Shown here one piece after another: positions 2,488 through 59,212 of a stretch of 64,000 nt of DNA. Every line of letters begins with the position of its first letter. Position 1 is the stretch's first letter. A model generated the notes under the pieces. That model searched no databases and had not been told where the DNA came from. It was given only the letters and a program-made list of their open reading frames with translations. The position numbers and the translations under genes were made by a program. The stretch covers positions 4,557 through 68,556 of the forward strand of contig DASZJH010000092.1 of the NCBI GenBank assembly GCA_035948375.1, read 5' to 3'. This DNA is from Chthoniobacterales bacterium (GTDB lineage: Bacteria; Verrucomicrobiota; Verrucomicrobiia; Chthoniobacterales; UBA10450).

Positions 2488-2510
2488 ATTTTGCCCTAAT
2501 TAAGCAGCTT

Positions 2511-42955: not shown

Positions 42956-43267
42956 TTAAATCTTAATCGTAATATCAACGCCCGCGGGTAGGTTCAGTTT
43001 CTTCAACTCATCCACCGTCTTCGCGGTCGGCTCGATAATGTCGAGCAACCGTTTGTGCGTGCGGATCTCAAATTGCTCCATCGATTTCTTGTCGACGTGG
43101 GGAGAACGATTGACCGTGAACTTCTCGATCAACGTCGGCAGCGGAATCGGGCCGGCCACGCGAGCGCCGGTGCGTTTCGCCGTCTCAACGATCTCGACCG
43201 CGGATTGATCGAGCATGCGATGATCGAACGCTTTCAAGCGAATCCGGATTTTTTGTCCTTCCGCCAT
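42956..43267 (-). CDS. rpsJ: 30S ribosomal protein S10
   Basis: 103-aa ORF: [45 protein letters not shown]... Confidence 0.97.
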
Positions 43268-45450
43268 TACTTCTTCTCCTTTTGATCAAGAATGGCTGCC
43301 ACCAGGTTCGCCGGCACAGGATCAAAATGCGACGGCTCCATCGAGTAGCTCGAGCGGCCTTTCGACAACGAACGGATCGCCGTGGCGTAACCGAAAAGTT
43401 CCGCGAGGGGAACGAGCGCATGAACGATCGCAAGATTGCCGCGCGATTCGATGCTTTGAATTGCGCCACGGCGACGGCTCAAGTCGCCGCAAATGTCGCC
43501 CTGATATTCTTCCGGCGTAATGTTTTCCACTTTCATGATCGGCTCGAGCAGGATCGGCTTCGCCGCTCTGAATCCGTCTTTCATCGCGAAGATGGCCGCC
43601 ATCTTGAACGCGAGCTCGTTCGAATCGACTTCGTGGAAGCTTCCGAAAACGATGTCGCACTCAACATCGACAACGGGATAACCGCCCAGAACGCCATCGA
43701 GCACCGCTTCTTCGATACCCTTTTTAACGGCCGGAATGTATTCGCGCGGAATAATTCCGCCGACGATCTTGTTCTCAACCACGAGGCCTTTGCTGCGCTC
43801 GCCCGGTCGAAGATCGACCTCGACGTGACCATATTGACCGCGACCGCCGGATTGTTTGATCAATTTGCCGACGCCGTGTGCGTTGGTGGTGATAGTTTCG
43901 CGATAAGCGATCTGCGGTTTGCCCGCGTTGGCGTCCACTTTGAATTCGCGGAACATGCGGTCGCGAATGATTTCCAAATGCAATTCGCCCATGCCCGCGA
44001 TGATTGTCTGGCCGGTATCTTCGTGAGTGTAAACGCGGAAAGTGGGATCTTCTTCGGCGAGTCGTTGCAGCGCAACGCCCATTTTTTCCTGGTCCAACTT
44101 CGTCTTCGGCTCAATCGCCATTGAAATGACTGGATCAGGGAAGGACGGTGGCTCGAGAAGAATTGGGTGGTCTTCGTCGCAAAGCGTGTCGCCCGTCGTG
44201 ATATTCTTAATGCCGACGATCGCGGCGATGTCGCCTGAATAACACGTCTCGATGTCTTCACGCTTGTCGGCTTGAATTTGGATCAGACGGGATATGCGTT
44301 CGCGTTTGTTCGTGCGTGGATTGTAAACGTTGTCGCCTTTGCTCAGCGTGCCTGAGTAAACGCGGAAGAAAACGAGTTTCCCGACGAACGGATCGCTCCA
44401 AAGTTTGAACGCGAGGGAGCAGAAGTTCCCATTGTCGTCTGTCGGCGCTTCCATTGGTTCGTGCGTGTCCGGCTCCATCCCTTTTGCTGGTGGAATGTCG
44501 AGCGGGCTCGGCAAATAATCGACGACCGCGTCGACCAGGTATTGCACACCGATGTTTTTCAACGCCGAGCCGCCAATGACCGGCACAAATTTGTTCGCAA
44601 TCGTTTGCCGGCGGATCGCCGCTTTCAAAAGCTGCGGCGTGACCAGTTTTTCTTCGAGAACGACTTCTGCAATCTCATCATCGATATTCGAAATCTGCTC
44701 GACGAGCTCTTTGTAAGCCTTATCCACGGCAGTGACATGTTCCTGGGGGACGTCCGTGACCTCGTATGTCGATCCAAGCTGGTCGCTGTCCGAATAAATG
44801 ATCGCCTTCTTATTAATAACGTCGAGCTGTCCGCGAAGTTGATCCTCACGACCAAGCGGCAACAGCACCGGCCAGGCGTTCGCGCCGAGTTTTTTGTGAA
44901 TGCTGTCCACCGACATCGCGAAATCGGCGCCGACGCGGTCCATCTTATTAATGAACGCGAGCTTTGGAACGTTGTACTTCGTCGCCTGCCGCCAAACCGT
45001 TTCGGATTGCGGTTGAACCCCGGCGACGCCGTCAAAAACGGCGATTGCGCCATCCAATACTCGCAGCGAACGCTCGACTTCTGCCGTGAAATCTACGTGA
45101 CCCGGCGTGTCGATGATGTTGATGCGTTGTTTGATCCCTTCGAAAATTTTGTAAACGCCTTCTTCTTTTTTCTGCGACCAACTGCATGTTGTCGCCGCGG
45201 AAGTTATCGTAATTCCGCGCTCGCGTTCCTGCTCCATCCAGTCGGTGACGGTGGTGCCTTCGTGCACCTCGCCCATCTTGTGGATCATTCCGGTGTAAAA
45301 CAGGACGCGTTCGGTAATCGTCGTTTTGCCGGCGTCGATGTGCGCGGCGATGCCGATGTTGCGCGTCCGTTCGAGCGGAAATTTCCGATTCGGCGAATTC
45401 GGACCTTTCGCCGCGGCTGTTTTTTTCTTTTCTACGGTCGCGGTCGCCAT
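43267..45450 (-). CDS. fusA: Elongation factor G
   Basis: 727-aa ORF with GTPase motifs [17 protein letters not shown] and NKMD, plus a ~25-aa basic N-terminal extension. Its stop overlaps the rpsJ ATG (TAATG). Confidence 0.97.
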
Positions 45451-45455
45451 AATCG

Positions 45456-45929
45456 TTACCAGCGGAAATGGGCAAACGCGCGGTTCGCTTGCGCCATTTT
45501 GTGCGTGTCTTCGCGTTTCTTGATCGCGTTGCCTTGACCTGCGGCCGCGTCTTTGATTTCGGCGGCCAGCGCCTGCGCCATTGGCATGCCTTTGCGAGTG
45601 TCGGCATATTGCACGATCCAGCGCATGGCAAGCGAGACCTGACGCGCGGGAGGAACTTCCAACGGCACTTGATAAGTCGCGCCGCCAACGCGACGTGATT
45701 TTACTTCCAAACGCGGCCGAACGTTTTCCAGCGCTTTATTTAAAACTTCGAGCGGATCGACTGAATCCGATCCTTCGCGCGATTTCTCAATCGCGGTATA
45801 GACAATGCGCTCGGCGAGCGATTTCTTGCCGCGCTGCATCACCGTGGTGATAAGACGCGCGACCGCCGGACTCCCATAACGGGAATCGACGCGCTCTTGC
45901 TTTTTGTAGACTCTCTTCCGTCGCGACAT
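45456..45929 (-). CDS. rpsG: 30S ribosomal protein S7
   Basis: 157-aa ORF: [20 protein letters not shown]...AHFRW. Confidence 0.97.
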
Positions 45930-45951
45930 TGTCGATCGTTTGTTTCAAAAT

Positions 45952-46389
45952 TTACTTTTTCTCTTCCTTGGCCGCAGTCGGCGCCGCTTTCGCTGCGCCG
46001 CCTCCGCCAGCCGCGCCACCTTTCGGGCGCTTCGCTCCGTACTTGGAGCGACTCCGTCGGCGTCCATCGACGCCGAGCGAGTCGAGCGTGCCCCGCACAA
46101 TGTGGTAGCGCACACCCGGCAAATCTTTCACTCGCCCCCCGCGCACAAGCACGATGGAATGCTCCTGCAAGTTGTGCCCTTCGCCTGGAATGTAGGCAAT
46201 CACTTCCTGGCCGTTCGTCAACCGCACTTTTGCCACTTTGCGCAGGGCGGAATTCGGCTTCTTCGGCGTGCGCGTCATCACCTGCACGCACACACCGCGG
46301 CGCTGGGGACAATTCGTCAGGGCCGGTGATTTCGATTTCACCGACATCTTCCGGCGTCCTTTCCGAATCAACTGGTTAATCGTTGGCAT
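45952..46389 (-). CDS. rpsL: 30S ribosomal protein S12 (with a G/A/K-rich C-terminal extension)
   Basis: The internal ATG at 46389 gives the canonical [14 protein letters not shown]. The core includes [17 protein letters not shown]. The tail reads [28 protein letters not shown]. Confidence 0.96.
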
Positions 46390-46577
46390 TTTTCTAAACA
46401 AAGCGCCGCCCGAACGGGTTGAAATCCGGCCGACAAAAAAACCCGCTCAAACGCGTTAACACACTGTCACGCGCCTGATGCGGTGAGGCGCGACTATAGA
46501 GGAGAAAATCGCGCCCCGCAAAGAATATTTTGCGTCTGAATTTGTTTTGGGCCGCGATCACGCGGAATCTGTTGCGA

Positions 46578-47750
46578 ATGCAAAAAACGTTCGAACTTTT
46601 GGCGCAAGATCGAGAATCCAAAGCGCGGCGCGGTCGGCTTGTGACCGTGCGTGGCGCGATTGAGACGCCAGCGTTCATGCCGATCGGAACCCAAGGATCC
46701 GTGAAGGCGGTGAGTCCGCGCGAACTGCGTGAGTTGAACGCCCAGATCATTCTCGGCAACACGTATCATTTGTTCGTCCGACCGGGGCTTGAAGTGATCA
46801 AACATTTCGACGGACTGCACAAATTCATGAATTGGGATGGCCCAATTCTGACCGACAGCGGCGGTTACCAAATCTTTTCACTGGCGAAGTTGCGGAAGAT
46901 CACTGAAGACGGCGTCCATTTTCAAAATCATCTCGATGGAACACCCGCGTTTATTTCGCCAGAGATCGCGATGGAAATTCAGGCCGCGCTGGGCAGCGAC
47001 ATCGCGATGGTGCTCGATGAATGTCCGCCCTGGCCGTGCGAGCGTGATTACGCCGCACGAAGTGCGGAAATGACGACGCGCTGGGCGGCGCGTTGCAAAA
47101 GGGCGCCGCGCAAAGATGGACAATTACTTTTTGGGATTGTGCAGGGCGCAACGTTTGAAGATCTGCGTAAGGAGTCGGCGCAGGCGATTGTCGATCTTGA
47201 TTTCGATGGCTACGCGATTGGCGGCGTCAGTGTCGGCGAGCCGGAAGAGGAAATGATTCGCGCGGTGGAATCGAGCCAACCGCTTTTGCCCAAAGACAAG
47301 CCGCGCTATGCGATGGGCCTCGGGACGCCGCCGCAGTTATTGGAAATGATCACTCGTGGAATGGACATGTTCGATTGCGTGTTGCCGACAAGACTGGCGC
47401 GCAATGGAACCGCATTTGCATCAACGGGCACGCTCAACTTGAAGAACGCTGAGTTCGCGAAAGATAAGCGGCCAATTGAAGAAGGTTGCAATTGCCCCAC
47501 CTGCGACGAATTCGGCCGCGGTTACATCCGTCACCTGGTAAAGGCTGAGGAGATTCTCGGGCTTCGTTTGATCACGCTGCACAATTTGCATTTCTATTTG
47601 GATCTGATGCGGCAAGCACGCGCAAAGATCGACAACGGAACGTTCGACAAGTTTCGGAACGATTTCGTCAACAATTACAAAAACGCGAGATGTCGAGGAA
47701 ACGTTGTAGCTACAGCGATTCTCGATTGCAGCGGAGGCGTTCGGGTTTAA
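46578..47750 (+). CDS. tgt: tRNA-guanine transglycosylase (queuine tRNA-ribosyltransferase)
   Basis: ATG at 46578 gives MQKTFELLAQDRESKARRGRL. TGT motifs are present: FMPIGTQGSVKAV, LTDSGGYQ and the zinc site CNCPTC...H. Confidence 0.95.
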   Translation: MQKTFELLAQDRESKARRGRLVTVRGAIETPAFMPIGTQGSVKAVSPRELRELNAQIILGNTYHLFVRPGLEVIKHFDGLHKFMNWDGPILTDSGGYQIFSLAKLRKITEDGVHFQNHLDGTPAFISPEIAMEIQAALGSDIAMVLDECPPWPCERDYAARSAEMTTRWAARCKRAPRKDGQLLFGIVQGATFEDLRKESAQAIVDLDFDGYAIGGVSVGEPEEEMIRAVESSQPLLPKDKPRYAMGLGTPPQLLEMITRGMDMFDCVLPTRLARNGTAFASTGTLNLKNAEFAKDKRPIEEGCNCPTCDEFGRGYIRHLVKAEEILGLRLITLHNLHFYLDLMRQARAKIDNGTFDKFRNDFVNNYKNARCRGNVVATAILDCSGGVRV

Positions 47751-47775
47751 ACTCCCGCTCGCCGAAAATTTTGCG

Positions 47776-48102
47776 ATGTCGATCCTAGCGATTCTTCTAG
47801 CTCAAGCACAGCCCGCCGCGCCTGGTCCTGGTCCGGCAGGCGGCTTCGGTGGCCTTTTCGTGCCGCTAATGTTGGTGATGGTCATCATGTATTTCATGAT
47901 GATTCGCCCGCAGAAGAAACGGCAGCAGGAGCAGCAGCGGCTGATTGCCAGCTTAAAAACCGGCGACAAAGTTGTGACCAACGCCGGCATTCATGGGTTG
48001 ATCGCGAACGTCAAGGAGACCACCCTGATGTTGAAAGTGGCCGACAACGTGAAGATCGAAGTGGAAAAATCGGCGATCACCAATCTTTTGAAGGAAAGTT
48101 AA
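47776..48102 (+). CDS. yajC: Preprotein translocase subunit YajC
   Basis: 108-aa ORF with a single TM helix then MIRPQKKRQQEQQRLIASLKTGDKVVTNAGIHG. It lies upstream of secDF. Confidence 0.92.
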   Translation: MSILAILLAQAQPAAPGPGPAGGFGGLFVPLMLVMVIMYFMMIRPQKKRQQEQQRLIASLKTGDKVVTNAGIHGLIANVKETTLMLKVADNVKIEVEKSAITNLLKES

Positions 48103-50495
48103 TGAGTCCTGCAGCCACATTTTTCGCAGGAATTGGCCTGTTGGTTTTGTTCGGCTGGTATTTTGCGACCGACAGCGAGCGGATTCGGCGAATGTTGGGA
48201 ACAGCTCTGACGATCGCAATCACGGCCTTTTGTCTCGCCTCGACATATCCGCCGTTCGACCAAAAACGTCCTGACGGAACGATCGTTCGTCCGGGGAAAA
48301 TTCATCTCGGTCTCGATTTGCAGGGCGGCACGTCATTTTTGATTCGGCTTGAGCCGGCGGCCGGCCCCGAAGGAACCAAGCGCCCGATTACGAAATCGAT
48401 GGTCGACCAAGCGATCGAGGCGATCAGAAAACGCGTTGATCAATTCGGAGTGAGCGAACCAATCATTACGCCACAAGGAACTGACAGGATCCTGGTTCAG
48501 ATCCCCGGCCTTGACGCCGGCAAAATCCAGGAAGCGCGCACACAGCTTCAGCGTGTAGCGAAGCTCGAATTCCGGATGGTGTATCCGGACAACGGCGACC
48601 GATTGGCCAAGATCGATCAAGGTCAGGAAGTAATTCCGCCCGACTACCGCATCGAAACCTACACAATGCGAGGCGAAGAAAATGAAAAGTCGCGCGAGGA
48701 ACGGTTATTGATCAAGAAAAAGGCCGATCTCGGAGGTGATCGCGTGACGGAATCTCATGCCTATTATGGCAATGAGGGCTGGACGGTGCAGATGAAGTTC
48801 GATGGCGAAGGGGCCAAGAAGTTTGGCGAGATCACAGCTGCCAACAAAGGTCACCGTTTTGCGATTGTGCTCGACGGCGTGGTTATATCCGCGCCGGTAA
48901 TTCGTGACGCTATTTACGGCGGCGACGCGATCATCACTGGCAAATTTGGCGAGGCGGAGGCGCGCGGGTTGGCGAGCGTGCTGGAAAATCCGCTACAGAC
49001 GCCCGTAAAGATTGAAGAGGAGCGCCAGGTCTCGGCCAGTCTCGGCAGCGATTCGATCAAGAGCGGAATTTACTCGGGCATTGCCGGCTTCGCGTTGGTC
49101 GTTGTGTTCATGATCATTTATTACCGGCTCGTGGGTTTGATTGCGGACATCGCGCTCGCAATCAACTGCATCATGGTGGTCGGCGCGCTCGGAATGTTCA
49201 ACAGCGTGCTAACCCTTCCCGGTATCGCCGGATTAATTCTGAGTCTTGGCATCGCGGTCGACGCCAACGTCCTGATTTACGAACGACTTCGCGACGAAAT
49301 TAAACAGGGCAAAACGCTGCGCACCGCGATCGATACGTCCTACGTGAAGGCATTTAGCGCGATCTTCGACGCGCACGTGACGCAGTTCCTCACCGCGGTC
49401 ATTCTGTTCTGGCTGGCGAGCGGACCAGTGAAAGGCTTCGCGCTGACGCTGACCATCGGCATCGTCGCGTCGATGTTTTCATCGCTGCTCGTCACCTACA
49501 CCTGCTTCTCGTGGGCATTCGCTCTCAATCTTTTGAAGCGCGTCTCAATGCTGCACCTCATTCGCTCGAAGGATTTCGATTTTCTCGGGAACGCCAAAAA
49601 ATTCATGCTCGTCTCGGGAATAGCGACGGTGGCGTGCCTTGCAGTCCTGTTTGTCCGCGGCAACCAAAATCTCGGCGCCGATTTTAGAGGTGGCGATTTA
49701 ATGGTGCTGTCCGCGAGCCAGAAACTCACTCCTGACCAAATCCGGATCGCCCTCGCCAATACTGGACTCCAGAACAGTGTGATCCAATCTGAGCGAGTTG
49801 CTAATCGCGACCTCATTAGCATCCGTTCCGACGCCGGAAACGCGGACAAAATTAAGGCGCGATTGCAGGAAGCGCTGCCAGGCGCCGGTTTGAAATTCGA
49901 ACAAACCGATCACGTCGGCGCGCTGGTTGGAAAGGAACTTGCGAGCAAGAGTGCGCTCGCCCTCACCCTGGGTCTAATCGGCATCTTCATTTACGTGAGC
50001 ATGCGCTTCGGAACCTCGTTCGCAGTTGGCTCACTCGCGGCTCTCGCGCACGATCTCATTATTACTCTTGGAATTTTCTCACTGAGCGGCCGCGAGCTCT
50101 CCTTGATCATGGTAGCTGCCGTCCTGACCATCGCCGGCTATTCGATTAACGATAAGATCGTTGTGTTCGACCGAATCCGGAGCGGTCTTCGAGACCGGCT
50201 TTCGGGTTCAATCGCCCAGGTAATGAACCACTCGATTAACGACACGTTGTCGCGAACGATTCTCACCGGCGGTACCGTTTTGCTCACTGTCCTAGCGCTT
50301 TATTTCTTTGGTGGTCCGGTTCTCAATGACTTCGCCTTCTCCTTTCTCGTGGGCGTCATCGTTGGCACTTATTCGTCGATCTTCATCGCGTCGCCGATCG
50401 TTCTTTGGTGGACGCGCGCTCGTGGCAAAGACACCGCTTCGCTTCGGCGCGAGGTCACGCAAGCGACTACCAGCGCGAATCCAATCGCCCGCTAG
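48102..50495 (+). CDS. secDF: Fused protein-export membrane protein SecDF
   Basis: 797-aa ORF. The SecD-like first ~500 aa has a large periplasmic loop and six TM helices. The SecF-like last ~300 aa follows. The start overlaps the yajC stop. Confidence 0.93.
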   Translation: MSPAATFFAGIGLLVLFGWYFATDSERIRRMLGTALTIAITAFCLASTYPPFDQKRPDGTIVRPGKIHLGLDLQGGTSFLIRLEPAAGPEGTKRPITKSMVDQAIEAIRKRVDQFGVSEPIITPQGTDRILVQIPGLDAGKIQEARTQLQRVAKLEFRMVYPDNGDRLAKIDQGQEVIPPDYRIETYTMRGEENEKSREERLLIKKKADLGGDRVTESHAYYGNEGWTVQMKFDGEGAKKFGEITAANKGHRFAIVLDGVVISAPVIRDAIYGGDAIITGKFGEAEARGLASVLENPLQTPVKIEEERQVSASLGSDSIKSGIYSGIAGFALVVVFMIIYYRLVGLIADIALAINCIMVVGALGMFNSVLTLPGIAGLILSLGIAVDANVLIYERLRDEIKQGKTLRTAIDTSYVKAFSAIFDAHVTQFLTAVILFWLASGPVKGFALTLTIGIVASMFSSLLVTYTCFSWAFALNLLKRVSMLHLIRSKDFDFLGNAKKFMLVSGIATVACLAVLFVRGNQNLGADFRGGDLMVLSASQKLTPDQIRIALANTGLQNSVIQSERVANRDLISIRSDAGNADKIKARLQEALPGAGLKFEQTDHVGALVGKELASKSALALTLGLIGIFIYVSMRFGTSFAVGSLAALAHDLIITLGIFSLSGRELSLIMVAAVLTIAGYSINDKIVVFDRIRSGLRDRLSGSIAQVMNHSINDTLSRTILTGGTVLLTVLALYFFGGPVLNDFAFSFLVGVIVGTYSSIFIASPIVLWWTRARGKDTASLRREVTQATTSANPIAR

Positions 50496-50571
50496 GCAGA
50501 TTTTGGCCGAATTTGACGGCGACCGATGGCCCGATTAGGGTCGGCCTCGCCCGGCAGGGCAGAAAATCTGC
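50496..50571 (+). repeat. Nested inverted repeats (branched stem-loop) between secDF and rpsU
   Basis: GCAGATTTT (50496-50504) pairs with AAAATCTGC (50563-50571), 9 bp. GGCCGA (50505-50510) pairs with TCGGCC (50541-50546), 6 bp. There is also a GCCC-ggca-GGGC mini-hairpin (50549-50560). Confidence 0.6.
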
Positions 50572-50592
50572 TAGGATTGGAGTTGAAACACC

Positions 50593-50787
50593 ATGCCAGA
50601 AGTACTCGTTCGCAAAGGTGAGCCAGTCGATCGCGCCTTGAAGCGCCTGAAGAACAAGCTCGACGCCGAGGGTATTCTCGAGGAAGTGCGCCGCCTGCGC
50701 GCTTTTGAGACCCCTTCGCAAAAATACCGCCGCAAGATGAAGGCAAACGCCAAGCGCGGTCGCACGAAGTTTCGTTTCAATCCGTAA
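50593..50787 (+). CDS. rpsU: 30S ribosomal protein S21
   Basis: 64-aa ORF: MPEVLVRKGEPVDRALKRLKNKLDAEGILEEVRRLRAFETPSQKYRRKMK. GGAG lies 11 nt upstream. Confidence 0.95.
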   Translation: MPEVLVRKGEPVDRALKRLKNKLDAEGILEEVRRLRAFETPSQKYRRKMKANAKRGRTKFRFNP

Positions 50788-50814
50788 GATCGACAATTAG
50801 CATTTGTTGATACA

Positions 50815-50843
50815 GGGGACACGCTACGGCGTGTCCTTTTTGT
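50815..50843 (+). terminator. Rho-independent terminator of rpsU
   Basis: GGACACGC (50817-50824), loop tacg, GCGTGTCC (50829-50836), followed by TTTTT (50837-50841). Confidence 0.8.
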
Positions 50844-50853
50844 TTCCAAACAC

Positions 50854-52455
50854 CTAATCGCATTCGCACACGATCCGGAATCCGAGATCGTTACAGGAAA
50901 AGTTGGGAGCGTTGGAGCTTCTGACCGTTGTCCGTAAACTGCTGAAGCGCGATTTCCAACTCCCGCCGCGGTGAACTCGCTTGGCGCCGATGGTCGGCCC
51001 GCGCGGGTTCACTTTTGGTCCCGGTCGATACGGTTCGTAATAATCCAGGCACCATTCCCAGATGTTGCCGGCCATGTCCTCGATTCCAAATGGACTGGCT
51101 CCAAGCGGGAACGCCCCAACCGGCGACGTTTCGGCGTAGCCGCAATCGATCTCATGATCGCTCCAGGCGAAAACGGTGTTCTTGTCGGCGAAGTTTGCCA
51201 GATCCCCGCGGCCATCCTGATTTCCCCAAGGAAATTTTCGGTTGTCGGTGCCTTTGGCGGCGTATTCCCATTCCGCTTCGGTTGGCAGGCGATACTTGCG
51301 ACGTTCGCGGGTACTAAGCCAGTTGCAAAACTTGGTCGCGTCCAGGCTGCTCACGTAAATAACAGGATGCCGATCGCCAGCGCCTGGCGCGCGTTTGCTG
51401 ACATGGGCGCGGTCGAACTGCTCGTACTCCGCGTTCGTGATTAAATAACGTGCAATATAAAAACGCGTGACAGTGACATGCGACGTCGGGTGTTCGTTCG
51501 GCGCGGCGTCGTCGGCTTCGCTGCCCATCGTAAATTCCGCCGACGGAACAAAGATCATCATTGCTCCGAGTGAGTTAGTGAAGTTGCTGTAACGCGAACG
51601 TTCCAGATCAGCGTTGTGTTCGAATTTTGCCGGCAACGGTTTCTCCTGAACCGGCGGCTGGGCCGCCGCCGTCTTGATCTCGATCTTCGGAGCCGCCGGC
51701 TTTGGCAGCGCGGCCATGGCTTTCTCGTCGGCTTCCTCGAGGTAAAGATCGACAAGATCCTCGGCTTCGCCCGGATCGAGGCCGAGGTTCTCGGCCATGT
51801 CGATGAAGGTGTCGCGCTGGTCGTCACTCATGCTCATGCTGTCGAGATTGCTCAGACGCAGCATGCGCAAGAATTCTTCCTGAGGATTTGAGGTCGCCGG
51901 TGTTGCGGAAAGCTCCGACAAGTGCGTCGTCGGCGACGCAACTACCGCGCGTTGAGCGCCTGTTTCATGCAATGCGTCCTCGATCAACGAAGTAACCTGC
52001 GCTTCGCTAAGGGCGCGATCGATTCCAAAGCGGATGAGATTTTTCTCCTCGTCAACGCTAAGGACACCGCCGGCCAGCGCAAATTCGAGATACTTTCGAA
52101 ATTCGGCTACCGCAGCATCGTGTTGTTGGGCAGCCAATTGCTCATCAACAAATTTGCGCCGTTCGGGGTCGAGAAGTTCCAGCCGCGCTTCGGTTAGATA
52201 CCGGGACGATTCCTCCAAGCCCACCCACAGCATCTGCGCCAGTGGATTGCTCGGTTGATTTTTGAGCGGCAGTTTTTTTTGCCACCAACGCATCAATTCG
52301 CGGCAATGCTCTTCGATCAGCTCATTGCTCGGATTGGCATAGGGATCGAGGCAGAGCCGATCATAAAAATTCGCTGATCGGTAGTTATTCCAGCCTTGCC
52401 ACTTTCGCGGGTCATCTGGGAGCGGAAGCGGAAAGGAAATATCGCACTTGCTCAT
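50854..52455 (-). CDS. J-like domain (no HPD), tandem helical repeats and a C-terminal FGE-sulfatase (C-type-lectin fold) domain lacking the catalytic cysteines
   Basis: 533-aa ORF. aa 28-107 are J-domain-like (NFYDRLCLDPYANPSNELIEEHCRELMRWWQKK...LLDPERRKFVDEQL). aa ~292-533 carry RLPTEAEWEYAAKG, GNIWEWCLD, RGGSW and LGFRIV. It starts 3 nt downstream of the Hsp70 gene. Confidence 0.85.
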   Translation of the reverse strand: MSKCDISFPLPLPDDPRKWQGWNNYRSANFYDRLCLDPYANPSNELIEEHCRELMRWWQKKLPLKNQPSNPLAQMLWVGLEESSRYLTEARLELLDPERRKFVDEQLAAQQHDAAVAEFRKYLEFALAGGVLSVDEEKNLIRFGIDRALSEAQVTSLIEDALHETGAQRAVVASPTTHLSELSATPATSNPQEEFLRMLRLSNLDSMSMSDDQRDTFIDMAENLGLDPGEAEDLVDLYLEEADEKAMAALPKPAAPKIEIKTAAAQPPVQEKPLPAKFEHNADLERSRYSNFTNSLGAMMIFVPSAEFTMGSEADDAAPNEHPTSHVTVTRFYIARYLITNAEYEQFDRAHVSKRAPGAGDRHPVIYVSSLDATKFCNWLSTRERRKYRLPTEAEWEYAAKGTDNRKFPWGNQDGRGDLANFADKNTVFAWSDHEIDCGYAETSPVGAFPLGASPFGIEDMAGNIWEWCLDYYEPYRPGPKVNPRGPTIGAKRVHRGGSWKSRFSSLRTTVRSSNAPNFSCNDLGFRIVCECD

Positions 52456-52458
52456 CGC

Positions 52459-54021
52459 CTAGGTGACGTGGAGTTCGTCCAACCCAGACGTGGCTTTATC
52501 GATATCTTTTGGATCCAGACCGGTGTTGCGGTCTATTGTCACCTGGGCGCTGTTGCCGGCGGCTTCTACCTGTACTTCCAACACCTGGTTGGCGTTATAT
52601 TGATAAGTCAATTGGACCGGAGAGCCCTTCGGCAAATATGGAGGCAGCTTAATGTCACAAACTCCCAGCGGAGTACATTCCGCGGGCACAGTGCTCTCAC
52701 CTTCCACAACTTTGACGATGGCGTGCTGCATGTTTGCGTCGGCTGTGCCAAACGAATTCTTCAACGTCGCCGGAATTGGCGTCATCTTGCGAATCATCGG
52801 GAACACGTATTCATTAAGGTGCTTTTCGTCCCAAAGCACGACGCCCAGCGTGTGCGAGGTGATGTCGGTAACTTCGATCAATCCACCATCAAGCCCCGAA
52901 AATCGTCGACGGACATCCGCGTCTACGACCCGCGCGCCGGATACGTTTTCCTCGGCCAAGATTGACAAAATGCCCTGAATCGCGGCGCCGCGTGCCACCA
53001 CTTCGTCAGGATTCAATTGATCGACCAGTGGCACGGAAGCAAAATTCGACATCATCGCGCGGATCATCGGCATTCGTGTCATGCCGCCGGCCAGAAGCAC
53101 CTTGTCGATCTTGTCCCATTTCAATTTCGCTTCCTGCATCACCATTTCGCAGATGGTTTTGCATTTCTCGACCAGGTGACGCGTTCGCTTCTCAAAATCC
53201 TTGCGCGTCAACGTCAACTTCACGCTCTTGCCGCCGTGGTGGTAAACGATGGTTGTGCTGTTGCGACTGGAGAGCTGGATCTTGGCCGACAGGGCGCGAT
53301 TGTGCAGATCCTGATAGCTGTGCAAATCTAGCAACGGATTCTCGCCGTGAAGGTGATCAAATTCCTCCGCGATCAGATTTACAATTACATCGTCCCAATC
53401 TTTTCCGCCCAACCGATGATCGCCGTTGGTCGCCACCATCTCGATCTTGTGATCGATGATGCGCATGATCGTGACGTCGAACGTGCCGCCGCCGAGATCG
53501 AAAACAAATACGGTCTGGTTTTCATCGAGCTTATCCAGGCCATAAGCCAGTGCTGCGGCCGTGGGCTCGTTGATAATTTGAAGAACATTCAGCCCGGCCA
53601 ATTGACCGGCAGTAATCGTGGCGGTGCGTTCGGCGTCGTTGAAGTAGGCCGGCACCGTGATGACGGCGTCCGTCACCTTCTGATCGAGATATTTTTCCGC
53701 GTCGGCCTTTAGCTTCCTGATGATCAGTGCCGAAAGCTCTTCGGCTGAATAAACCTTGCCGTTAAATTCGCGGTGAAATTGGTCTTTCGGTTTGCCGATT
53801 TCGCGCTTCACAAAATCGACAATCTTCTCCGGCTCGGCGACCGCATTGTTCTTGGCCACGGTGCCGACGATTACGTTACTGCCATCGAAGAAAATCACTG
53901 ACGGAGTGATCCGTTCGGTTTCTGAGTTGGGAATGATTTGCGGTTTGCCGTAACTATCAATGTGGGCAATGGCGGAAAAGGTCGTGCCGAGATCAAGTCC
54001 AACTACTTTGCGTGCACTCAT
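52459..54021 (-). CDS. Hsp70-family ATPase paralogue (HscC-like, lacking the C-terminal helical lid)
   Basis: 520-aa ORF with motifs DLGTTFS, VITVPAYFNDAER, INEPTAAALAYG, VFDLGGGTFDV and LAGGMTRMP. It ends shortly after a beta-sandwich region. Confidence 0.93.
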   Translation of the reverse strand: MSARKVVGLDLGTTFSAIAHIDSYGKPQIIPNSETERITPSVIFFDGSNVIVGTVAKNNAVAEPEKIVDFVKREIGKPKDQFHREFNGKVYSAEELSALIIRKLKADAEKYLDQKVTDAVITVPAYFNDAERTATITAGQLAGLNVLQIINEPTAAALAYGLDKLDENQTVFVFDLGGGTFDVTIMRIIDHKIEMVATNGDHRLGGKDWDDVIVNLIAEEFDHLHGENPLLDLHSYQDLHNRALSAKIQLSSRNSTTIVYHHGGKSVKLTLTRKDFEKRTRHLVEKCKTICEMVMQEAKLKWDKIDKVLLAGGMTRMPMIRAMMSNFASVPLVDQLNPDEVVARGAAIQGILSILAEENVSGARVVDADVRRRFSGLDGGLIEVTDITSHTLGVVLWDEKHLNEYVFPMIRKMTPIPATLKNSFGTADANMQHAIVKVVEGESTVPAECTPLGVCDIKLPPYLPKGSPVQLTYQYNANQVLEVQVEAAGNSAQVTIDRNTGLDPKDIDKATSGLDELHVT

Positions 54022-54148: not shown

Positions 54149-54844
54149 TCAGCCGAAGCGTTTTGCGATGACTTCCTCAGGGCGGATCAGTTTGCCGCGC
54201 CAGATGAACCCGCGTTTCACCCGCATTACGATTGTGCCGTCTTCTTCGGGGAAGTCTGCCGGTTCGTAGCTCAGTACGCGATGGTAGGCGCGATCAACCC
54301 GTTCCCGCGCCTCGATCTCTCGTACATCGAAGCGATGCAGGATTTCGACCAGCGAATGGATGGCGTTCTCCAGATTGTCGCGCCACTGTGAGACGCGGCT
54401 GCGCTTTCCTTTTTCTTGTGCCGCACTCGAGAGCTGTTCGCACAACCCGTTCAGATGGTCGTAGAGATAAACGAGATCGTGAATGAACGGTTTCTGGAGC
54501 GATTCGTGCAGAAAATTGTCGCGATACTTGCGCAGCTCGGAATGCAGCGAATCGAACAATTGCTGATTGACGCTCTCAGTGTTGCGAATCAAAGACAGTT
54601 GTTCGTCGATCTTGCGTAGTTGCTTTTCAAGGGCGGTCGCGTGTGAGGTTTCCATGGCCGCTGCAAACGCTTCGAATCTGCCGAGCAAATTTTTCTCCAG
54701 CGTCCGGAGCTGTTCCGCCACCGGCTCCGCAGACTGGTCGTCCCCCACAATCATTGGGGACGTGGGCAACGTTTTCTCAGCCTCAGCGCTCAGCTGCTGC
54801 ATCGCGGCCGTAAAATCTTCTTCGACTTTAATGGCTTTACTCAC
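54149..54844 (-). CDS. GrpE-like nucleotide exchange factor
   Basis: 231-aa ORF with a GTG start in a GTGA overlap with the cobA/hemD stop. Its helical part (LHSELRKYRDNFLHE...LVYLYDHLNGL) and beta-domain (RFDVREIEARERVDRAYHRVLSYEP...GTIVMRVKRGFIWRGKLIRPEEVIAKR) are colinear with GrpE. Confidence 0.8.
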   Translation of the reverse strand: MSKAIKVEEDFTAAMQQLSAEAEKTLPTSPMIVGDDQSAEPVAEQLRTLEKNLLGRFEAFAAAMETSHATALEKQLRKIDEQLSLIRNTESVNQQLFDSLHSELRKYRDNFLHESLQKPFIHDLVYLYDHLNGLCEQLSSAAQEKGKRSRVSQWRDNLENAIHSLVEILHRFDVREIEARERVDRAYHRVLSYEPADFPEEDGTIVMRVKRGFIWRGKLIRPEEVIAKRFG

Positions 54845-56370
54845 GGCGCTTTCTCAGCTGCGAAAAATTTTCGGATCGCTTCAACCAAGCCTTCGATGTC
54901 GTGGCGCCGCGCTTCGATGTCGATCTTCAGCCCACGGTCGCGCGCAGTTTTGGATGTAATTGGCCCAATGCTCGCCACTCGAATTCCTTTTGGCCAGGCC
55001 AGGCCCAGCGCGAGAAAATTTTCCACCGTGGAAGAGCTGGTGAAGGTGATCAAATCCGCCCCCTCTTCCAAAAAACGGCGACGCGCGCCAGTAATGTCGC
55101 GCGTTTCCGGAACAGTTCGATACGCAGATGCTTCATCGACAATGGCCCCCAGCTTGGACAATTCCCTCGGTAGCACGTCCCGCGCCTTTTCCGCCCGCGC
55201 TATCAGGATTCGCAAATTTTCCACGCCTCCCTGCTTTCGAAATTCGCCCACCACAGCCTCTGCCACGAATTCATCCGGCTGAACATCGACATGCAGATGA
55301 AAATCTCGCACGCGCTGCGCAGTCGCCGGCCCGATTGCGGCGATCTTTGCCGCGCCAATCTCGCGCGCGTCGTCGTAAAGCTTGAAGAACATCTCGAAGA
55401 AGGCGTCGACGCCGTTTGGACTCGTGAACACGATCCAGTCGTAGGTGTGCGCGTCCTGAACCAGCTCGCCGAATTCGCGCAAGTCGGTTGGCGGGTCGAT
55501 TCGAATCGTTGGTAATTCGATAACATCCGCGCCGAGCACGCGAAGCTGACTGGTCAGCGCGCCAGCCTGCTTTCGGGTTCGCGTAACCACGATTCGTTTC
55601 CCCGACAGCGGCCGCTGCTCGTACCAATTTAAGTGTTTGCGCAGCCCGACCACATCTCCGAACACGGCGACGGCCGGCGCCTCGAATTCCGCTTCAATCG
55701 CGCGCCTAGCAATGTTTTCCAAAGTTCCCGTCAACGTTTGTTGGCGACCGGTCGTTGCCCAACGTACCAGCGCCACCGGCAGATCAGGTCGCACTCCCTT
55801 CCCCATCATCTCGCGCGTAATCGACTCAAGTCTCTCAACGCCCATCATCATCACTTGCGTCCCGCCCAACTTCGCCAGCGCCGAATAATCAATCGCGCTC
55901 TCTAATTTAGAAGGATCCTCATGGCCGGTGAAAAATGTGACGTGGGAATTTTCGGCGCGATGAGTCACCGGAATTCCGGCATAAGCAGGTCCGGCGATCG
56001 CCGACGTGATTCCTGGAACAATCTCGAAGGCAATTCCCGCATCGACAATCGCCTTGGCCTCCTCAGCGCCCCTACCGAAAACGAACGGGTCCCCGCCTTT
56101 CAATCGGACGACTTCTTTTCCCGCGCGCGCCTTTTCGGTGAGCAGTTTGTTGATTTCATCCTGACTCAGCGCGTGCTCGCCCGCTTTTTTCCCGGCATAA
56201 ATAATTTCCGCGGCGTCGCGCGCCCACCCCAGCATCTCCGGATTCGCGAGATGATCGTAAACAATGACGTCTGCGTGCTCCATGCACTCCTTTGCCCGCA
56301 ACGTGACCAGTCCAAGATCGCCCGGGCCAGCGCCTACTAAGTAAACTCTTCCACTCTTAGTCGTACTCAT
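54841..56370 (-). CDS. cobA/hemD: Fused uroporphyrinogen-III C-methyltransferase / uroporphyrinogen-III synthase
   Basis: 509-aa ORF. The N-terminal half has the SUMT signature VYLVGAGPGDLGLVTLRA...VRLKGGDPFVFGRG. The C-terminal half is HemD-like (GKRIVVTRTRKQAGALTSQL...). Confidence 0.92.
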   Translation of the reverse strand: MSTTKSGRVYLVGAGPGDLGLVTLRAKECMEHADVIVYDHLANPEMLGWARDAAEIIYAGKKAGEHALSQDEINKLLTEKARAGKEVVRLKGGDPFVFGRGAEEAKAIVDAGIAFEIVPGITSAIAGPAYAGIPVTHRAENSHVTFFTGHEDPSKLESAIDYSALAKLGGTQVMMMGVERLESITREMMGKGVRPDLPVALVRWATTGRQQTLTGTLENIARRAIEAEFEAPAVAVFGDVVGLRKHLNWYEQRPLSGKRIVVTRTRKQAGALTSQLRVLGADVIELPTIRIDPPTDLREFGELVQDAHTYDWIVFTSPNGVDAFFEMFFKLYDDAREIGAAKIAAIGPATAQRVRDFHLHVDVQPDEFVAEAVVGEFRKQGGVENLRILIARAEKARDVLPRELSKLGAIVDEASAYRTVPETRDITGARRRFLEEGADLITFTSSSTVENFLALGLAWPKGIRVASIGPITSKTARDRGLKIDIEARRHDIEGLVEAIRKFFAAEKAP

Positions 56371-57311
56371 GCTCTTACTCGGATTTGCTCGAGTACCTGT
56401 GCAGCCAATTTCTCCGCATCCTCGCTTGGCCCGTTAACGAAAGCCTGCCGCGGCGCGGTTGCTCCCGGATCAAAGATTTGCCCATGGATTTTCATTGTCG
56501 ATCCTTCGATCGTTGCCAAGACCCCGACGGGTTGATTGCAATCAGCGTCTACCAACCGCAAGAACTCGCGTTCTGCTCGCAAGCTCAGCCGCGTGTCGAA
56601 ATCGTTGATCGGCTCGAGCATTTCTCGGAGTTGTTGATTGTCGGAGCGAATTTGCATTGCCACAACGCCTTGCCCGCCCGCGGGCACGAAAATTTCAGGC
56701 GAAAGAAGTGTCGTGAAAAATTCATTGTTCTCGAACTCGATTCGCCGGCGTTCGGCTTTCAGCCCGAGCCGTTGCAAACCGGCGTTAGCCAGGATAATCG
56801 CGTGCCAACGATCAGTCGCCAGCTTGCGCAAACGAGTCGGCACGTTGCCCCGAAGATCGACAATCTCCAGGTCCGGCCGTTTCCAGCGGAGCTGATGTTG
56901 TCGCCGAACACTTCCCGTCGCGACGATTCCGTCTTTAGGTAGCGATTCCAGATCGCTCTGCGTTGTCGCCACCAATACATCATCGACCACTGCCCGCGGC
57001 AGGACAGCTGCGATTTCGGTGCGCGGCGACAATCTGCTCGGCAGGTCTTTCGCGCTATGCACCGCCAGATCGATCTGCTTTTCAACCAGACTGCGCTCAA
57101 TTGAGTCGGTAAATAATCCCTTCCGGCCGGCCCTAACATCAACAATCGCCGTTTTTTCGTCGTCACCGCGCGTCTTAATGATTTCGATCTCGAACTTCAA
57201 ATCGGCCCACCGTGCCTGCAACGCATCAACCACCAGGCCGGTCTGCCGCAGCGCAAGCTCGCTTCCGCGCGTGCCAACTACGATTTTGATCCGGTGTGGA
57301 CGCTTCACCAC
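56367..57311 (-). CDS. hemC: Hydroxymethylbilane synthase (porphobilinogen deaminase)
   Basis: 314-aa ORF: IKIVVGTRGSELALRQT...IKTRGD...HSAKDLP...RGNV.TRL.KL. Confidence 0.95.
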   Translation of the reverse strand: MVKRPHRIKIVVGTRGSELALRQTGLVVDALQARWADLKFEIEIIKTRGDDEKTAIVDVRAGRKGLFTDSIERSLVEKQIDLAVHSAKDLPSRLSPRTEIAAVLPRAVVDDVLVATTQSDLESLPKDGIVATGSVRRQHQLRWKRPDLEIVDLRGNVPTRLRKLATDRWHAIILANAGLQRLGLKAERRRIEFENNEFFTTLLSPEIFVPAGGQGVVAMQIRSDNQQLREMLEPINDFDTRLSLRAEREFLRLVDADCNQPVGVLATIEGSTMKIHGQIFDPGATAPRQAFVNGPSEDAEKLAAQVLEQIRVRA

Positions 57312-57353
57312 GTTCCTGTAGCGGCGGTCTATGACCGCCGCAAACGCGGCCGC

Positions 57354-58424
57354 CTACAACTCCGACGCGCGCAGTGATCCGTCTCCGACTGCTGGATGTT
57401 CGGCCGTTCCTTTCGCCCGATTCAGGCCGCCCGCCATCGATTGTTCGAACTCGCCGACGTGCTGGGCAATGATCTCTTCCGCCGCGGCGATTTGTTCGCG
57501 CCGCATGGCCAACGATTGTTCGGCGATCGATTGCAACGAATCGATATCGTAAAGATAAACGCCCGCCAGATCATTCACTCCGATGTCGACGTTGCGCGGC
57601 ACGGCGATGTCGACGATGAAGAGCGGCCGATCGATCCGATCACGCAGTGTTGGCGCAAGCTTCTCCCGCGAAAGCAACGGCACTTCGGAGGATGTCGATG
57701 TAATCAGAATATCGATCTCGCGGCATTCGTTAGGCCAGGTTTCAAACGGAACGGCACGAGCCGCAGTCAATTGTGCAAGACTCTCAGCGCGTTCGCCGGA
57801 ACGATTACTCACGCGCAGATCGGCCACGCCGCGGGAAACCAATGCGCGCGCCGTCCTTTCGCTCGTTTCCCCGGCGCCAAGCACGAGCACTTTGCAGTTC
57901 CGAAGGTCGCCAAAAATCTTCTGAGCAAGATCGACCGCGACCGACCCGACCGACACCGCACCGCGGGTAATGTCAGTGTGCGTCCGAACTTGTTTGGCCA
58001 CACGAAAAGCGCGTTGAAACAGTCGGTGCAGGTGCGAACCAGCCGCGCCTGATGAGCTCGCCGCTTCATAAGCCTTTTTTGCCTGACCGAGAATTTCCGT
58101 TTCACCAACAACCATCGAATCGATTCCACACGTCACACGAAACAGATGACGAACACATTGCGCGTCTTCATATCGATAGAACGGGGCCGATTCGCGCGAA
58201 GCGTGGATGTCGATCTTCCGATCGAGACAGCGCGCAATGTCCAATGTCGAAACGCGTGATTCCGATGCGCCGTAGACTTCAACCCGATTACATGTCGCCA
58301 ATAGCAGCGCTTCAGCGCAACCAGACTTTCGCAACAGGGAATCGATCTCGGCGTTGCCGCCAAAACGTTCCAATGTCGCGACATCCGCTGTGTGATAGCT
58401 CACGCCGACACAAAAAAGATTCAT
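57354..58424 (-). CDS. hemA: Glutamyl-tRNA reductase (short form, 356 aa)
   Basis: ATG at 58424 (ATGA overlap with the upstream stop) gives MNLFCVGVSYHTADVATLERF. The catalytic Cys lies in LLATCNRVEVY and the NADPH motif is VLVLGAGETSE. Confidence 0.93.
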   Translation of the reverse strand: MNLFCVGVSYHTADVATLERFGGNAEIDSLLRKSGCAEALLLATCNRVEVYGASESRVSTLDIARCLDRKIDIHASRESAPFYRYEDAQCVRHLFRVTCGIDSMVVGETEILGQAKKAYEAASSSGAAGSHLHRLFQRAFRVAKQVRTHTDITRGAVSVGSVAVDLAQKIFGDLRNCKVLVLGAGETSERTARALVSRGVADLRVSNRSGERAESLAQLTAARAVPFETWPNECREIDILITSTSSEVPLLSREKLAPTLRDRIDRPLFIVDIAVPRNVDIGVNDLAGVYLYDIDSLQSIAEQSLAMRREQIAAAEEIIAQHVGEFEQSMAGGLNRAKGTAEHPAVGDGSLRASEL

Positions 58425-59212
58425 GGCGTGTGCGTTTGGGCCGTGAACGTAATTCCCCACAAGAGTGTCAAGGCCGCGCTAAAGCCGACGATGCAAAGTG
58501 CCGCCACACGTTTTGGGGCAAACCAGCGCAGATAGCGGCCCTGCAAAATCAGCGCATACAAGATCCAGACGCCGATTGCGCAGATGATTTGCGGCCACGG
58601 CAATGGCTCGCCCACAAAAAATCCGCTGATTAATCCGAGCGTATAAAGAACGAAACCCCACCACAGAAGTCGCGTGATCGCCGCGAAAAGGTCGGTCAGC
58701 GGCGGCAAATGAAAAAAGATCGAGTGGAGATGGTGAGTCTTGAGCTGACGCTCTTGGACGAGATACATCACGCCGGCGATGCCGGACAACGCGAAAGCCC
58801 CGTAAGCGACCAGCGACATAGACGCATGAAATTCCAGCCACGAATTCGCCGGCAACTTCGGCCGATGTGGATGATCGATCGGCGCGATTAGCGCAAAAAT
58901 TTGGAGTAAGGCAACGACCGGCGCGGTGAATGCGCCCATGAGCGACAGCCGATACGCCGGACCCACTACGATGTAGAAAAGCGCCACCGACCACGCGACG
59001 AAAATGATGACTTCAAACAAATTTGTGATCGGGCAGCGGCCGAGTTCGCGTCCACGGATCGACAGAAACGCGGTTTGAAGAATGAAGCCGAGACCGACCG
59101 CAAAAAAATTGAACCGCATCGGCCGAAAGATGCCGCCACGGATCTGGACAACAGTGTGCGCAATCGCCGCCAGAAAACAGACAGTTGAAGCAATGAGAAG
59201 ATATCGATCCAC
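58421..59212 (-). CDS. Cytochrome c assembly (CcsA/HemX-like) integral membrane protein
   Basis: 263-aa ORF with about 8 TM helices. Its position directly upstream of hemA recalls B. subtilis hemX. Confidence 0.75.
   Translation of the reverse strand: MDRYLLIASTVCFLAAIAHTVVQIRGGIFRPMRFNFFAVGLGFILQTAFLSIRGRELGRCPITNLFEVIIFVAWSVALFYIVVGPAYRLSLMGAFTAPVVALLQIFALIAPIDHPHRPKLPANSWLEFHASMSLVAYGAFALSGIAGVMYLVQERQLKTHHLHSIFFHLPPLTDLFAAITRLLWWGFVLYTLGLISGFFVGEPLPWPQIICAIGVWILYALILQGRYLRWFAPKRVAALCIVGFSAALTLLWGITFTAQTHTP

Follow-up and report, generated by a model that had tools for sequence, protein, structure and literature searches.

A candidate adaptor co-chaperone with a divergent J-type domain lacking His-Pro-Asp, encoded directly after a lidless Hsp70 in Chthoniobacterales

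The stretch of DNA considered here, a window of 64 kb from contig DASZJH010000092.1 of a Chthoniobacterales bacterium, carries on its minus strand three consecutive genes, for a GrpE-like nucleotide exchange factor, an Hsp70 and a protein of 533 residues, the target of this study, whose open reading frame (ORF) is listed first in Table 1. The ATG of the target gene lies 3 nucleotides (nt) after the TAG of the Hsp70 gene, and the GTG start of the GrpE-like gene overlaps the stop of an upstream cobA/hemD gene. A first-pass annotation of this DNA had called the target a "specificity subunit", a label that fits its context, i.e., a 3-nt gap after the cognate Hsp70, a GrpE gene upstream and a gene order that is kept in most of 160 loci (see below); the peptides it quoted were found again at residues 28-107 (nt 52135-52374) and 496-533 (nt 50857-50970). 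The identical protein in the public databases, HEV3393356.1, comes from a metagenome-assembled genome (MAG) of Chthoniobacterales (Verrucomicrobiota) and is annotated either as "SUMF1/EgtB/PvdO family nonheme iron enzyme" or as [quoted passage not shown]. Neither of these names is backed by active-site residues, and the J-like half of the protein is unannotated. A Pfam scan recognised the C-terminal domain of the formylglycine-generating enzyme (FGE)-sulfatase family and matched nothing in residues 1-298, and no description of this architecture or of the operon was found in the published literature. The target clearly combines both folds, that of the J domain and that of FGE, and yet it fails the motif tests that define J-domain proteins and FGE.

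Table 1. Features of the three-gene set and of the target protein, in window coordinates (aa, amino acids of the target unless stated otherwise)
Feature	Position	Strand	Remarks
Target ORF	50854..52455	-	J-like domain, two TerB-like helical repeats, Pro/Ala-rich linker, Cys-less FGE-type domain
Conserved N-terminal extension, FPxPLPDDPxKWxGW	52375..52434	-	aa 8-27
Divergent J domain	52135..52374	-	aa 28-107; profile comparisons, AF2, Foldseek
Loop motif WWQKKLPLKNQPSNP	52243..52287	-	aa 57-71; at the place of the HPD loop
Helical repeat 1	51940..52110	-	aa 116-172; three helices, weakly TerB-like
Helical repeat 2	51712..51885	-	aa 191-248; duplicate of repeat 1
Pro/Ala-rich linker	51562..51711	-	aa 249-298; poorly conserved
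FGE-sulfatase-type domain	50869..51561	-	aa 299-529; Pfam PF03781
Degenerate FGE active-site loop RGGSWKSRFSSLRTT	50926..50970	-	aa 496-510
C-terminal Cys-Glu-Cys	50860..50868	-	C530, C532; invariant
Hairpin with 11-bp stem	50814..50839		between the convergent rpsU and target genes; T-run after it on the + strand
Hsp70	52459..54021	-	520 aa (protein length); PF00012, E = 2.4e-122
GrpE-like nucleotide exchange factor	54149..54844	-	231 aa (protein length); Pfam GrpE, E = 9.5e-14

The first-pass annotation had read residues 28-107 as J-like, and the evidence from profiles, from the PDB and from predicted structure agrees with this. A PDB search with the single sequence of residues 1-254 gave no match (best E = 0.21), and Pfam DnaJ (PF00226) did not match the target itself even at E <= 1, the gathering threshold not being reached. 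An alignment (A1) was then built from the first ~115 residues of 18 family members, including distant relatives for which 1.84 billion cluster representatives had been searched exhaustively. Its profile matched J-domain chains in the PDB almost exclusively, at E-values of at least 7e-5 and over the whole J domain, and five of the 18 members matched Pfam DnaJ individually (best E = 4e-6). Profile-profile comparison by hhalign with a J-domain alignment, composed of E. coli DnaJ, human DNAJB1 and the Pfam-positive second domains found in distant relatives, gave a probability of 98.3% and E = 2.1e-14 over 71 columns. The AlphaFold2 (AF2) model of the N-terminal part (residues 1-255) had a pLDDT of 87, with residues 10-170 and 190-250 above 90, and the helices of the J-like domain were placed at residues 30-33 (I), 44-60 (II), 71-95 (III) and from 97 onward (IV). 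The N-terminal extension (residues 8-27), whose W22 is invariant down to the distant relatives, was placed with high confidence within the same domain. Foldseek with this model returned a J domain, 2och, as the top match (probability 0.99, target TM-score 0.70), followed by 2dn9 (TM 0.69) and 5nro_B (TM 0.68), the latter being the DnaJ J domain of a complex with DnaK; the E-values of these matches are weak (0.6-7), which is normal for a helical domain of 70 residues, and they are supportive rather than decisive alone. With the full-length model, Foldseek gave FGE-fold matches only, the J-domain matches coming from the model of residues 1-255. Taken together, the profiles and the model indicate that residues 28-107 are a true but divergent J domain.

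What this domain lacks is the His-Pro-Asp (HPD) tripeptide. As the first-pass annotation had claimed for the start of the protein, there is no HPD anywhere in the target, nor in the first 130 residues of 120 homologues, and no alignment puts an HPD-equivalent in register. In the HMMER alignment, KYHPDRNQ of DnaJ pairs with KKLPLKNQ, so that HPD corresponds to L62-P63-L64 (nt 52264-52272) and the preceding WWQ forms a one-turn extension of helix II, in agreement with the end of helix II at residue 60 in the AF2 model; in the hhalign alignment, HPD corresponds to Q59-K60-K61 and LPL is an insertion. Both registers leave the target without the His and without the Asp. The first-pass annotation had suggested that orthologues be aligned to see whether the replacement is conserved, and among 69 full-length orthologues "KLPLKNQPSN" proved to be 100% conserved, within the most conserved part of the protein, i.e., helix II, the loop and helix III (residues 41-100), where the majority fraction is 0.91-1.00, versus 0.3-0.5 in the linkers. 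Because the loop and its surroundings are so conserved, the replacement of HPD would not be a product of decay. Helix II is changed as well, the basic residues R19, R22, K23 and R27 of DnaJ being aligned with E45, E48, E49 and E53 of the target. A second, unrelated HPD-less J-like protein (MIDYYEVLQVSPDASEETIDEQYRFLLQAFEADPFEDD...) was seen directly after a homologue of the target (P0128) at another locus (L090, 9760..10893), with no Hsp70 nearby.

The partner Hsp70 was aligned with E. coli DnaK, the numbering of which was checked at T199, E171, R167, D393 and K70. It keeps DnaK D8, K70, P143, D148, E171, D194, T199 and D201, and with D8, K70, E171, D194, T199 and D201 in place, ATPase activity is probable. 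DnaK Arg167, on the other hand, corresponds to Gln148 of this Hsp70 (nt 53578-53580, in the context "NVLQIINEPTAAA"), and a Gln is present at that position in 60 of 61 Hsp70 orthologues, with Q, A or G in the Hsp70s that stand beside distant relatives of the target. Further changes relative to DnaK are Asp477 to Gln, Asp481 to Asn and Glu206 to Arg, a shortened and neutral counterpart of the acidic 206-217 hairpin, IEVTD in place of the linker VLLLD, a family-specific insertion of 22 residues ahead of this linker, and an end at residue 520, i.e., without the alpha-helical lid. The NCBIfam DnaK scores of this Hsp70 reach about half of the cut-off.

In the complex of DnaK with DnaJ, D35 of DnaJ bonds R167 and Q378 of DnaK, H33 bonds the backbone of L391, K48 bonds D477, and D481 clamps R167, while the basic helix II of DnaJ meets the acidic subdomain IIa of DnaK (PMC8215388, PMC7289447). 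Since R167, D477, D481 and the IIa hairpin are changed in the Hsp70, and HPD and helix II in the target, both the "recognition" and the "mechanistic" contacts of this canonical model are altered, and on both partners. The missing HPD would then be a co-evolved feature rather than decay, and for this the loss of Arg167, which the first-pass annotation did not contain, is the stronger argument.

The same losses can be read differently. With the HPD Asp, Arg167 and the electrostatic recognition surfaces all gone, the J-like domain might be a non-stimulating tether or regulator that holds the lidless Hsp70 in a permanent 1:1 complex, in the style of zuotin-Ssz1 or of Pam16, the Hsp70 serving mainly as a scaffold or holdase. 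The change of the hydrophobic linker from VLLLD to IEVTD would suit such a complex, as would the 3-nt gene junction, which suggests equimolar synthesis, considering that canonical J proteins are sub-stoichiometric (DnaJ at 2.3 uM versus DnaK at 34 uM; PMC8215388) and that the lidless Hsp70s HspA14 and Ssz1 operate in this manner (PMC13580251). However, all the catalytic residues of the ATPase are conserved, as are Pro143 and Asp148, and the operon has kept a dedicated GrpE gene, which argues for nucleotide cycling. A permanent tether is thus judged to be unlikely, although it overlaps with the idea of a targeting co-chaperone set out below and differs from it only over whether hydrolysis is stimulated.

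Between the J-like domain and the linker lie the two helical repeats, each of three helices in the AF2 model. The first-pass annotation had described a tandem duplicate at residues 116-162 and 193-240, and this was borne out by comparing the sub-alignments of residues 108-172 and 186-250 with each other by hhalign (E = 5e-5 over 51 columns); residues 116-172 and 191-248 are accordingly taken, on the strength of this profile match, as a genuine duplication. The repeat unit, F..L...L.DG.L...E...L...A..LGL....AE.LI...L, is present in one or two copies in all relatives. Against the PDB, the repeat profile gave as its top match the TerB-family structure 2ou3 (E = 0.0036), both halves of which it matched with the shared motif "DG.L..E...L...A..LG"; Pfam TerB was touched weakly by three of 24 repeat units (E >= 0.035), and Foldseek with the helical repeats found no structural match. 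A TerB-like nature of the repeats is therefore a marginal similarity and a lead only. The repeats (residues 110-171 and 182-262) also match, weakly, the PADLOC candidate defence family PDC-S48 (E = 9e-6 and 2e-3), a sign that unrelated proteins may contain this helical unit too.

The C-terminal domain belongs to the FGE-sulfatase family by a Pfam match of E = 1.6e-49 that covers profile positions 4-254 of 255, and its closest solved relatives, among PDB sequences, are true FGEs (E = 2.5e-31). At the active site, however, "GGSYMCHRSYCYRYR" of human FGE stands opposite "GGSWKSRFS---SLR" of the target, or, over a longer stretch, KGGSYMCHRSYCYRYRC opposite RGGSWKSRFS---SLRT, so that Cys336 of human FGE corresponds to Ser502 and Cys341 falls in a deletion of three residues; no alignment restores the pair, as the first-pass annotation had maintained. 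Ser502 is invariant in the 69 orthologues, as is nearly every residue of the former active-site loop. Of the residues around the O2 pocket of FGE (PMC6676471), Trp299 and Ser333 have invariant equivalents in the target, W466 and S499, and the equivalent of S290/S357 is kept as S520 (mapped by sequence offset). Between two aligned blocks the target has 12 residues and human FGE 61, and the segment with W84, F86, W108 and W109, which in tcFGE hold the Pro and Arg of the CxPxR motif (PMC6676471), has no counterpart in the target, as mapped by sequence offset rather than by structure. Because of this shortening and of the missing segment, the groove for the sulfatase motif is probably not preserved. 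Five cysteines of the domain are invariant, C377, C469, C521, C530 and C532, the last two within a C-terminal CEC[DE]; C469, C521, C530 and C532 make up a family-specific set, in a domain without the canonical FGE pair, and may form a structural or relocated metal site.

These features allow the domain to be regarded as an enzyme or metal center at a relocated site (C469, C521, C530, C532, W466, S499), with the J-like domain and Hsp70 serving in its maturation or in substrate delivery. The five invariant cysteines, the retained residues of the O2 pocket, the near invariance of the former active-site loop and the database name "nonheme iron enzyme" all speak for such a center. Nevertheless, the Cys pair that binds Cu(I) and is the mark of FGE is missing, a segment of ~50 residues with the Pro/Arg-recognition residues of tcFGE is without counterpart (PMC6676471), the Pfam scan showed no DinB-type iron domain of the EgtB/OvoA type, and Cys-less relatives (pFGE/SUMF2, PvdO, PorK/GldK) are among the PDB matches. 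The AF2 model is of too low confidence around C469, C521, C530 and C532 for their relative positions to be read from it, and on balance an enzyme is judged improbable. The first-pass annotation had concluded that the domain is a binding module and not an oxidase: the loss of the Cys pair on which it relied stands, whereas a binding role is what we infer; W466 and S499 are kept, and the invariant cysteine set was no part of that annotation.

A further suggestion, that the domain resembles the variable proteins of diversity-generating retroelements (DGRs), proved not to be applicable, because the C-terminal half of the domain is ~90% conserved among orthologues and has no second DNA copy in the window. 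The search for a second copy or template repeat of the FGE domain elsewhere in the window gave only chance matches of 11-13 nt, the hypervariable positions that the first-pass annotation had proposed to look for are not present in this strongly conserved domain, and no reverse transcriptase was evident among the ORFs around the locus, all of them housekeeping-like, although no dedicated search for one was made. The DGR variable protein was rejected for its lack of both hypervariability and a template repeat.

A Cys-less FGE fold could also bind the CxPxR of unfolded Cys-type sulfatases and pass them on to the Hsp70, i.e., act as a sulfatase-maturation chaperone after the manner of pFGE/SUMF2, which binds sulfatases, pFGE being a Cys-less paralogue of FGE (1y4j). 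One locus (L089) offers a hint of this, in that a secreted sulfatase with a CSPTR motif and a signal peptide (2409..4160) lies directly downstream of a homologue of the target (P0126). This adjacency is the only one among ~165 loci examined, and in 160 other loci no sulfatase lies within 6-7 kb. Verrucomicrobial genomes are commonly reported to be rich in sulfatase genes, and given their number a single adjacency is expected by chance. With the motif-recognition segment of tcFGE missing as well, this explanation was largely rejected and is the least probable of those considered.

How widely the three genes occur together was followed in two sets of loci. A scan of species-representative genomes, queried with the J-like domain of the target (its first 114 residues), found relatives in at least 371 of them; the best 80 of these are all Chthoniobacterales/"Spartobacteria". 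In the loci of these 80 genomes the Hsp70 gene is directly upstream in 79, GrpE is present in 69, rpsU downstream in 65, hemC in 66 and cobA/hemD in 69; 80 metagenome loci, which complete the set of 160, have the Hsp70 directly upstream in 72 and GrpE in 55, and the loci without a neighbor match are mostly on contigs that are too short. The Hsp70 neighbor is 73-96% identical across the genome loci, and the metagenome loci include a more divergent clade, with 46-51% identity in the target and ~70% in the Hsp70, that has the same gene order. Wherever the contig is long enough, the succession hemA-hemC-cobA/hemD-grpE-hsp70-target holds down to a target identity of 46%. Truncation, or splitting by frameshifts, affects many of the homologues in the databases, such as P0055 (269 residues), followed by a separate FGE ORF of 237 residues in a long-read MAG (L001, 8001..9615), and for this reason the short "FGE-less" versions are regarded as assembly artefacts rather than as a distinct architecture.

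At one locus (L003) the three-gene cassette stands in an unrelated neighborhood, and distant relatives, with 22-33% identity in the J-like domain, likewise adjoin a short Hsp70 and GrpE. Their C-termini are different, i.e., LamG, RodZ_C, or FGE behind a transmembrane segment, and several have a second J domain, Pfam-positive yet HPD-less, a beta domain and transmembrane segments. Because the trio is kept both at L003 and by the distant relatives, the conserved unit is GrpE plus a short Hsp70 plus a J-like adaptor with an exchangeable C-terminal domain. The wider family amounts to 162 clusters at 50% identity, a count to be read with the breadth of the family being poorly sampled; a profile of distant relatives alone (A5) found three proteins.

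Some distant relatives have an Hsp70-vWA fusion in their neighborhood. Two such fusions, of 678 and 681 residues (L005, 2743..4779; L007, 1994..4039), lie beside a short Hsp70 and distant J-like relatives, and L005 has in addition a rhomboid, a DUF87 ATPase and a NERD/NACHT protein, resembling the neighborhood of a conflict system. A role as sensor in conflict or in defence against phage might accordingly be considered for the target, with an FGE or "FGS" domain recognising an invader molecule and the NTPase chaperone setting the threshold, as in the systems of Kaur et al. 2020, where FGS domains are sensor or effector modules and Hsp70 with GrpE occurs in some systems (PMC7159879); the distant relative at L005 and the weak PADLOC match of the repeats to PDC-S48 (the better of the two) could be cited for it. 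Yet in most of the 160 loci the cassette stands at one and the same place, flanked by heme-synthesis genes on one side and by rpsU/secDF on the other, purifying selection on it is strong and it contains no hypervariable region, and the PADLOC system models gave no convincing Hsp70 or GrpE match. The window contains no vWA, MoxR or GTPase partner beside its housekeeping-like ORFs, nor, as described above, a template repeat or an apparent reverse transcriptase. The hallmarks of NTP-dependent conflict systems (a vWA-MoxR, GTPase or peptidase core, variable effectors and a patchy distribution) are not found, no ORF near the locus resembling such a gene, Hsp70-vWA neighbors occurring only in distant relatives. 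For the Chthoniobacterales lineage the idea of a defence island was rejected on the fixed synteny of the 160 loci, and a sensor of this kind is regarded as very improbable.

The interpretation that is favored, with some though not high confidence, is that the target serves as the targeting, or adaptor, co-chaperone in a dedicated Hsp70 system of three genes, those for the GrpE-like factor, the lidless Hsp70 and the target itself. The N-terminal J-type domain would dock on the cognate Hsp70 via the face formed by helix II, the loop and helix III, the high conservation of which is as expected because it would be an interface with a very conserved Hsp70. This docking interface would be rewired on the J side, where (QKK)LPL stands in for HPD and helix II is no longer basic, and on the Hsp70 side, where Gln replaces Arg167, neither Asp477 nor Asp481 is retained and the IIa hairpin is neutral rather than acidic, with the presumed outcome that the pair is insulated from the housekeeping network of DnaK and DnaJ. 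A spacer or a secondary interaction module may be formed by the two TerB-like repeats together with the flexible linker (low pLDDT at residues 251-276), and the Cys-less, conserved FGE-fold domain would bind one conserved cytoplasmic ligand or client and present it to the lidless substrate-binding domain. GrpE would then reset the Hsp70 cycle; because the catalytic residues and GrpE are retained, real nucleotide cycling is argued for. Whether ATP hydrolysis is still stimulated or a stable 1:1 complex is formed would distinguish two variants of the targeting co-chaperone.

Several points weigh against this interpretation. That the Hsp70 system is dedicated and insulated is something that we infer, and the register of the loop is ambiguous, LPL by HMMER and QKK by hhalign. 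No J protein tested stimulates ATPase activity once its HPD is lost (PMC8215388), and for this reason the J-like domain may only tether or regulate, like Pam16. At the other end of the protein, AF2 modelled the C-terminal half of the FGE-type domain unreliably (pLDDT <50), and the retention of W466 and S499 along with the five invariant cysteines makes a catalytic or metal-binding role conceivable.

A more detailed version of the targeting co-chaperone can be offered tentatively, its chances being clearly the lower. It would be an Hsp70/J pair that does without either half of the trigger (the HPD Asp and Arg167) and without the charge match of helix II and subdomain IIa, in which a hydrophobic WW...LPL loop would sit on the Gln167 lidless Hsp70, forming a stoichiometric machine that couples nucleotide cycling to one conserved ligand of the Cys-less FGE fold, a ligand that is perhaps tied to the tetrapyrrole operon (hemA-hemC-hemD/cobA) of which the cassette is part across the Chthoniobacterales. 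A functional link of the cassette to heme synthesis is only a possibility, because rpsU and secDF are about as syntenic as the heme genes and the cassette at L003 is located elsewhere.

Paralogous Hsp70s that have their own targeting J protein and are insulated from DnaK/DnaJ are known from the pairs HscC-DjlC/DjlB and HscA-HscB of E. coli and from DnaK1-DnaJ3-GrpE of Nostoc, and in HscC, too, the C-terminus is shortened and residues near the J-binding hairpin are changed (PMC8215388, PMC9239167). The J proteins of the HscC, HscA and DnaK1 pairs, however, keep HPD (or HPE), which the target lacks, and Arg167, a conserved J-contact of Hsp70s according to the reviews of those pairs, is Gln in the Hsp70 of the target. 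HscA and HscC have lost their dependence on GrpE, whereas the operon of the target encodes its own GrpE and an Hsp70 wholly without a lid. DjlA shares the combination of a J-type domain with TerB-like helical units and differs in being membrane-anchored, with a C-terminal J domain that has an intact HPD and with DnaK as its partner; the TerB similarity of the target is marginal. We know of no HPD-less J-like protein with a co-evolved Hsp70 that lacks Arg167.

J folds without the catalytic tripeptide are described for Pam16/Tim16, for DNAJB13 and for the plant proteins CPP1/CDF1 (PMC10410713), all of which differ from the target in being eukaryotic; Pam16 acts as the partner of a true J protein. 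From the data sets of large J-protein surveys, sequences without HPD were removed (PMC10410713). The pairing proposed for the target would resemble the ribosome-associated complex of Ssz1/HspA14 and zuotin, in which a lidless, atypical Hsp70 is stably partnered with a multidomain J-type adaptor (PMC13580251). There, however, zuotin has an HPD, which serves a third protein, Ssb, and Ssz1 does not cycle as an ATPase, whereas the Hsp70 of the target keeps its catalytic residues and GrpE. Truncated DnaK paralogues had been noted earlier as uncharacterised (PMC13580251). As for the C-terminal domain, pFGE/SUMF2, PvdO, PorK/GldK, the C-domain of EgtB and TvpA all have the FGE-sulfatase fold without the Cu-binding Cys pair, and all are among the PDB sequence matches. 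Unlike them, the target is closest in sequence to true FGEs, has Ser at the position of Cys336, is cytoplasmic and is fused to a J domain; its domain is not hypervariable, unlike that of TvpA, and has no DinB partner domain, unlike that of EgtB.

HPD and Arg167 are treated as invariant and as essential in every Hsp70/J system studied, and here both sides are changed together, in a widespread pair that is present in at least 371 species-level genomes and is under strong purifying selection. If the target does act as an adaptor, nature would here provide an Hsp70 machine that works without the textbook HPD switch. The pair, with its lidless Hsp70 and its own GrpE, would offer an experimental handle on other ways in which a J fold can be coupled to Hsp70, and it bears on how networks of paralogous Hsp70s stay insulated from one another. 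The analysis also corrects a systematic mis-annotation as "formylglycine-generating enzyme" and defines a previously unannotated N-terminal module, J-like and TerB-like, that carries different sensor domains in other phyla.

The surroundings of the cassette in the window consist, directly upstream, of a tetrapyrrole cluster on the minus strand (54841..59212) with a CcsA/HemX-like membrane protein, hemA, hemC and the cobA/hemD fusion, and, on the other side, of housekeeping genes (43267..50787) for EF-G, the ribosomal proteins S7 and S12, tgt, yajC, secDF and rpsU, as judged from their translations and from the Pfam labels of the syntenic locus L001. An Rfam scan of the 64-kb window found no family above threshold, and a promoter scan was uninformative. 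The hairpin between the rpsU and target genes likely marks the 3′ end of the operon.

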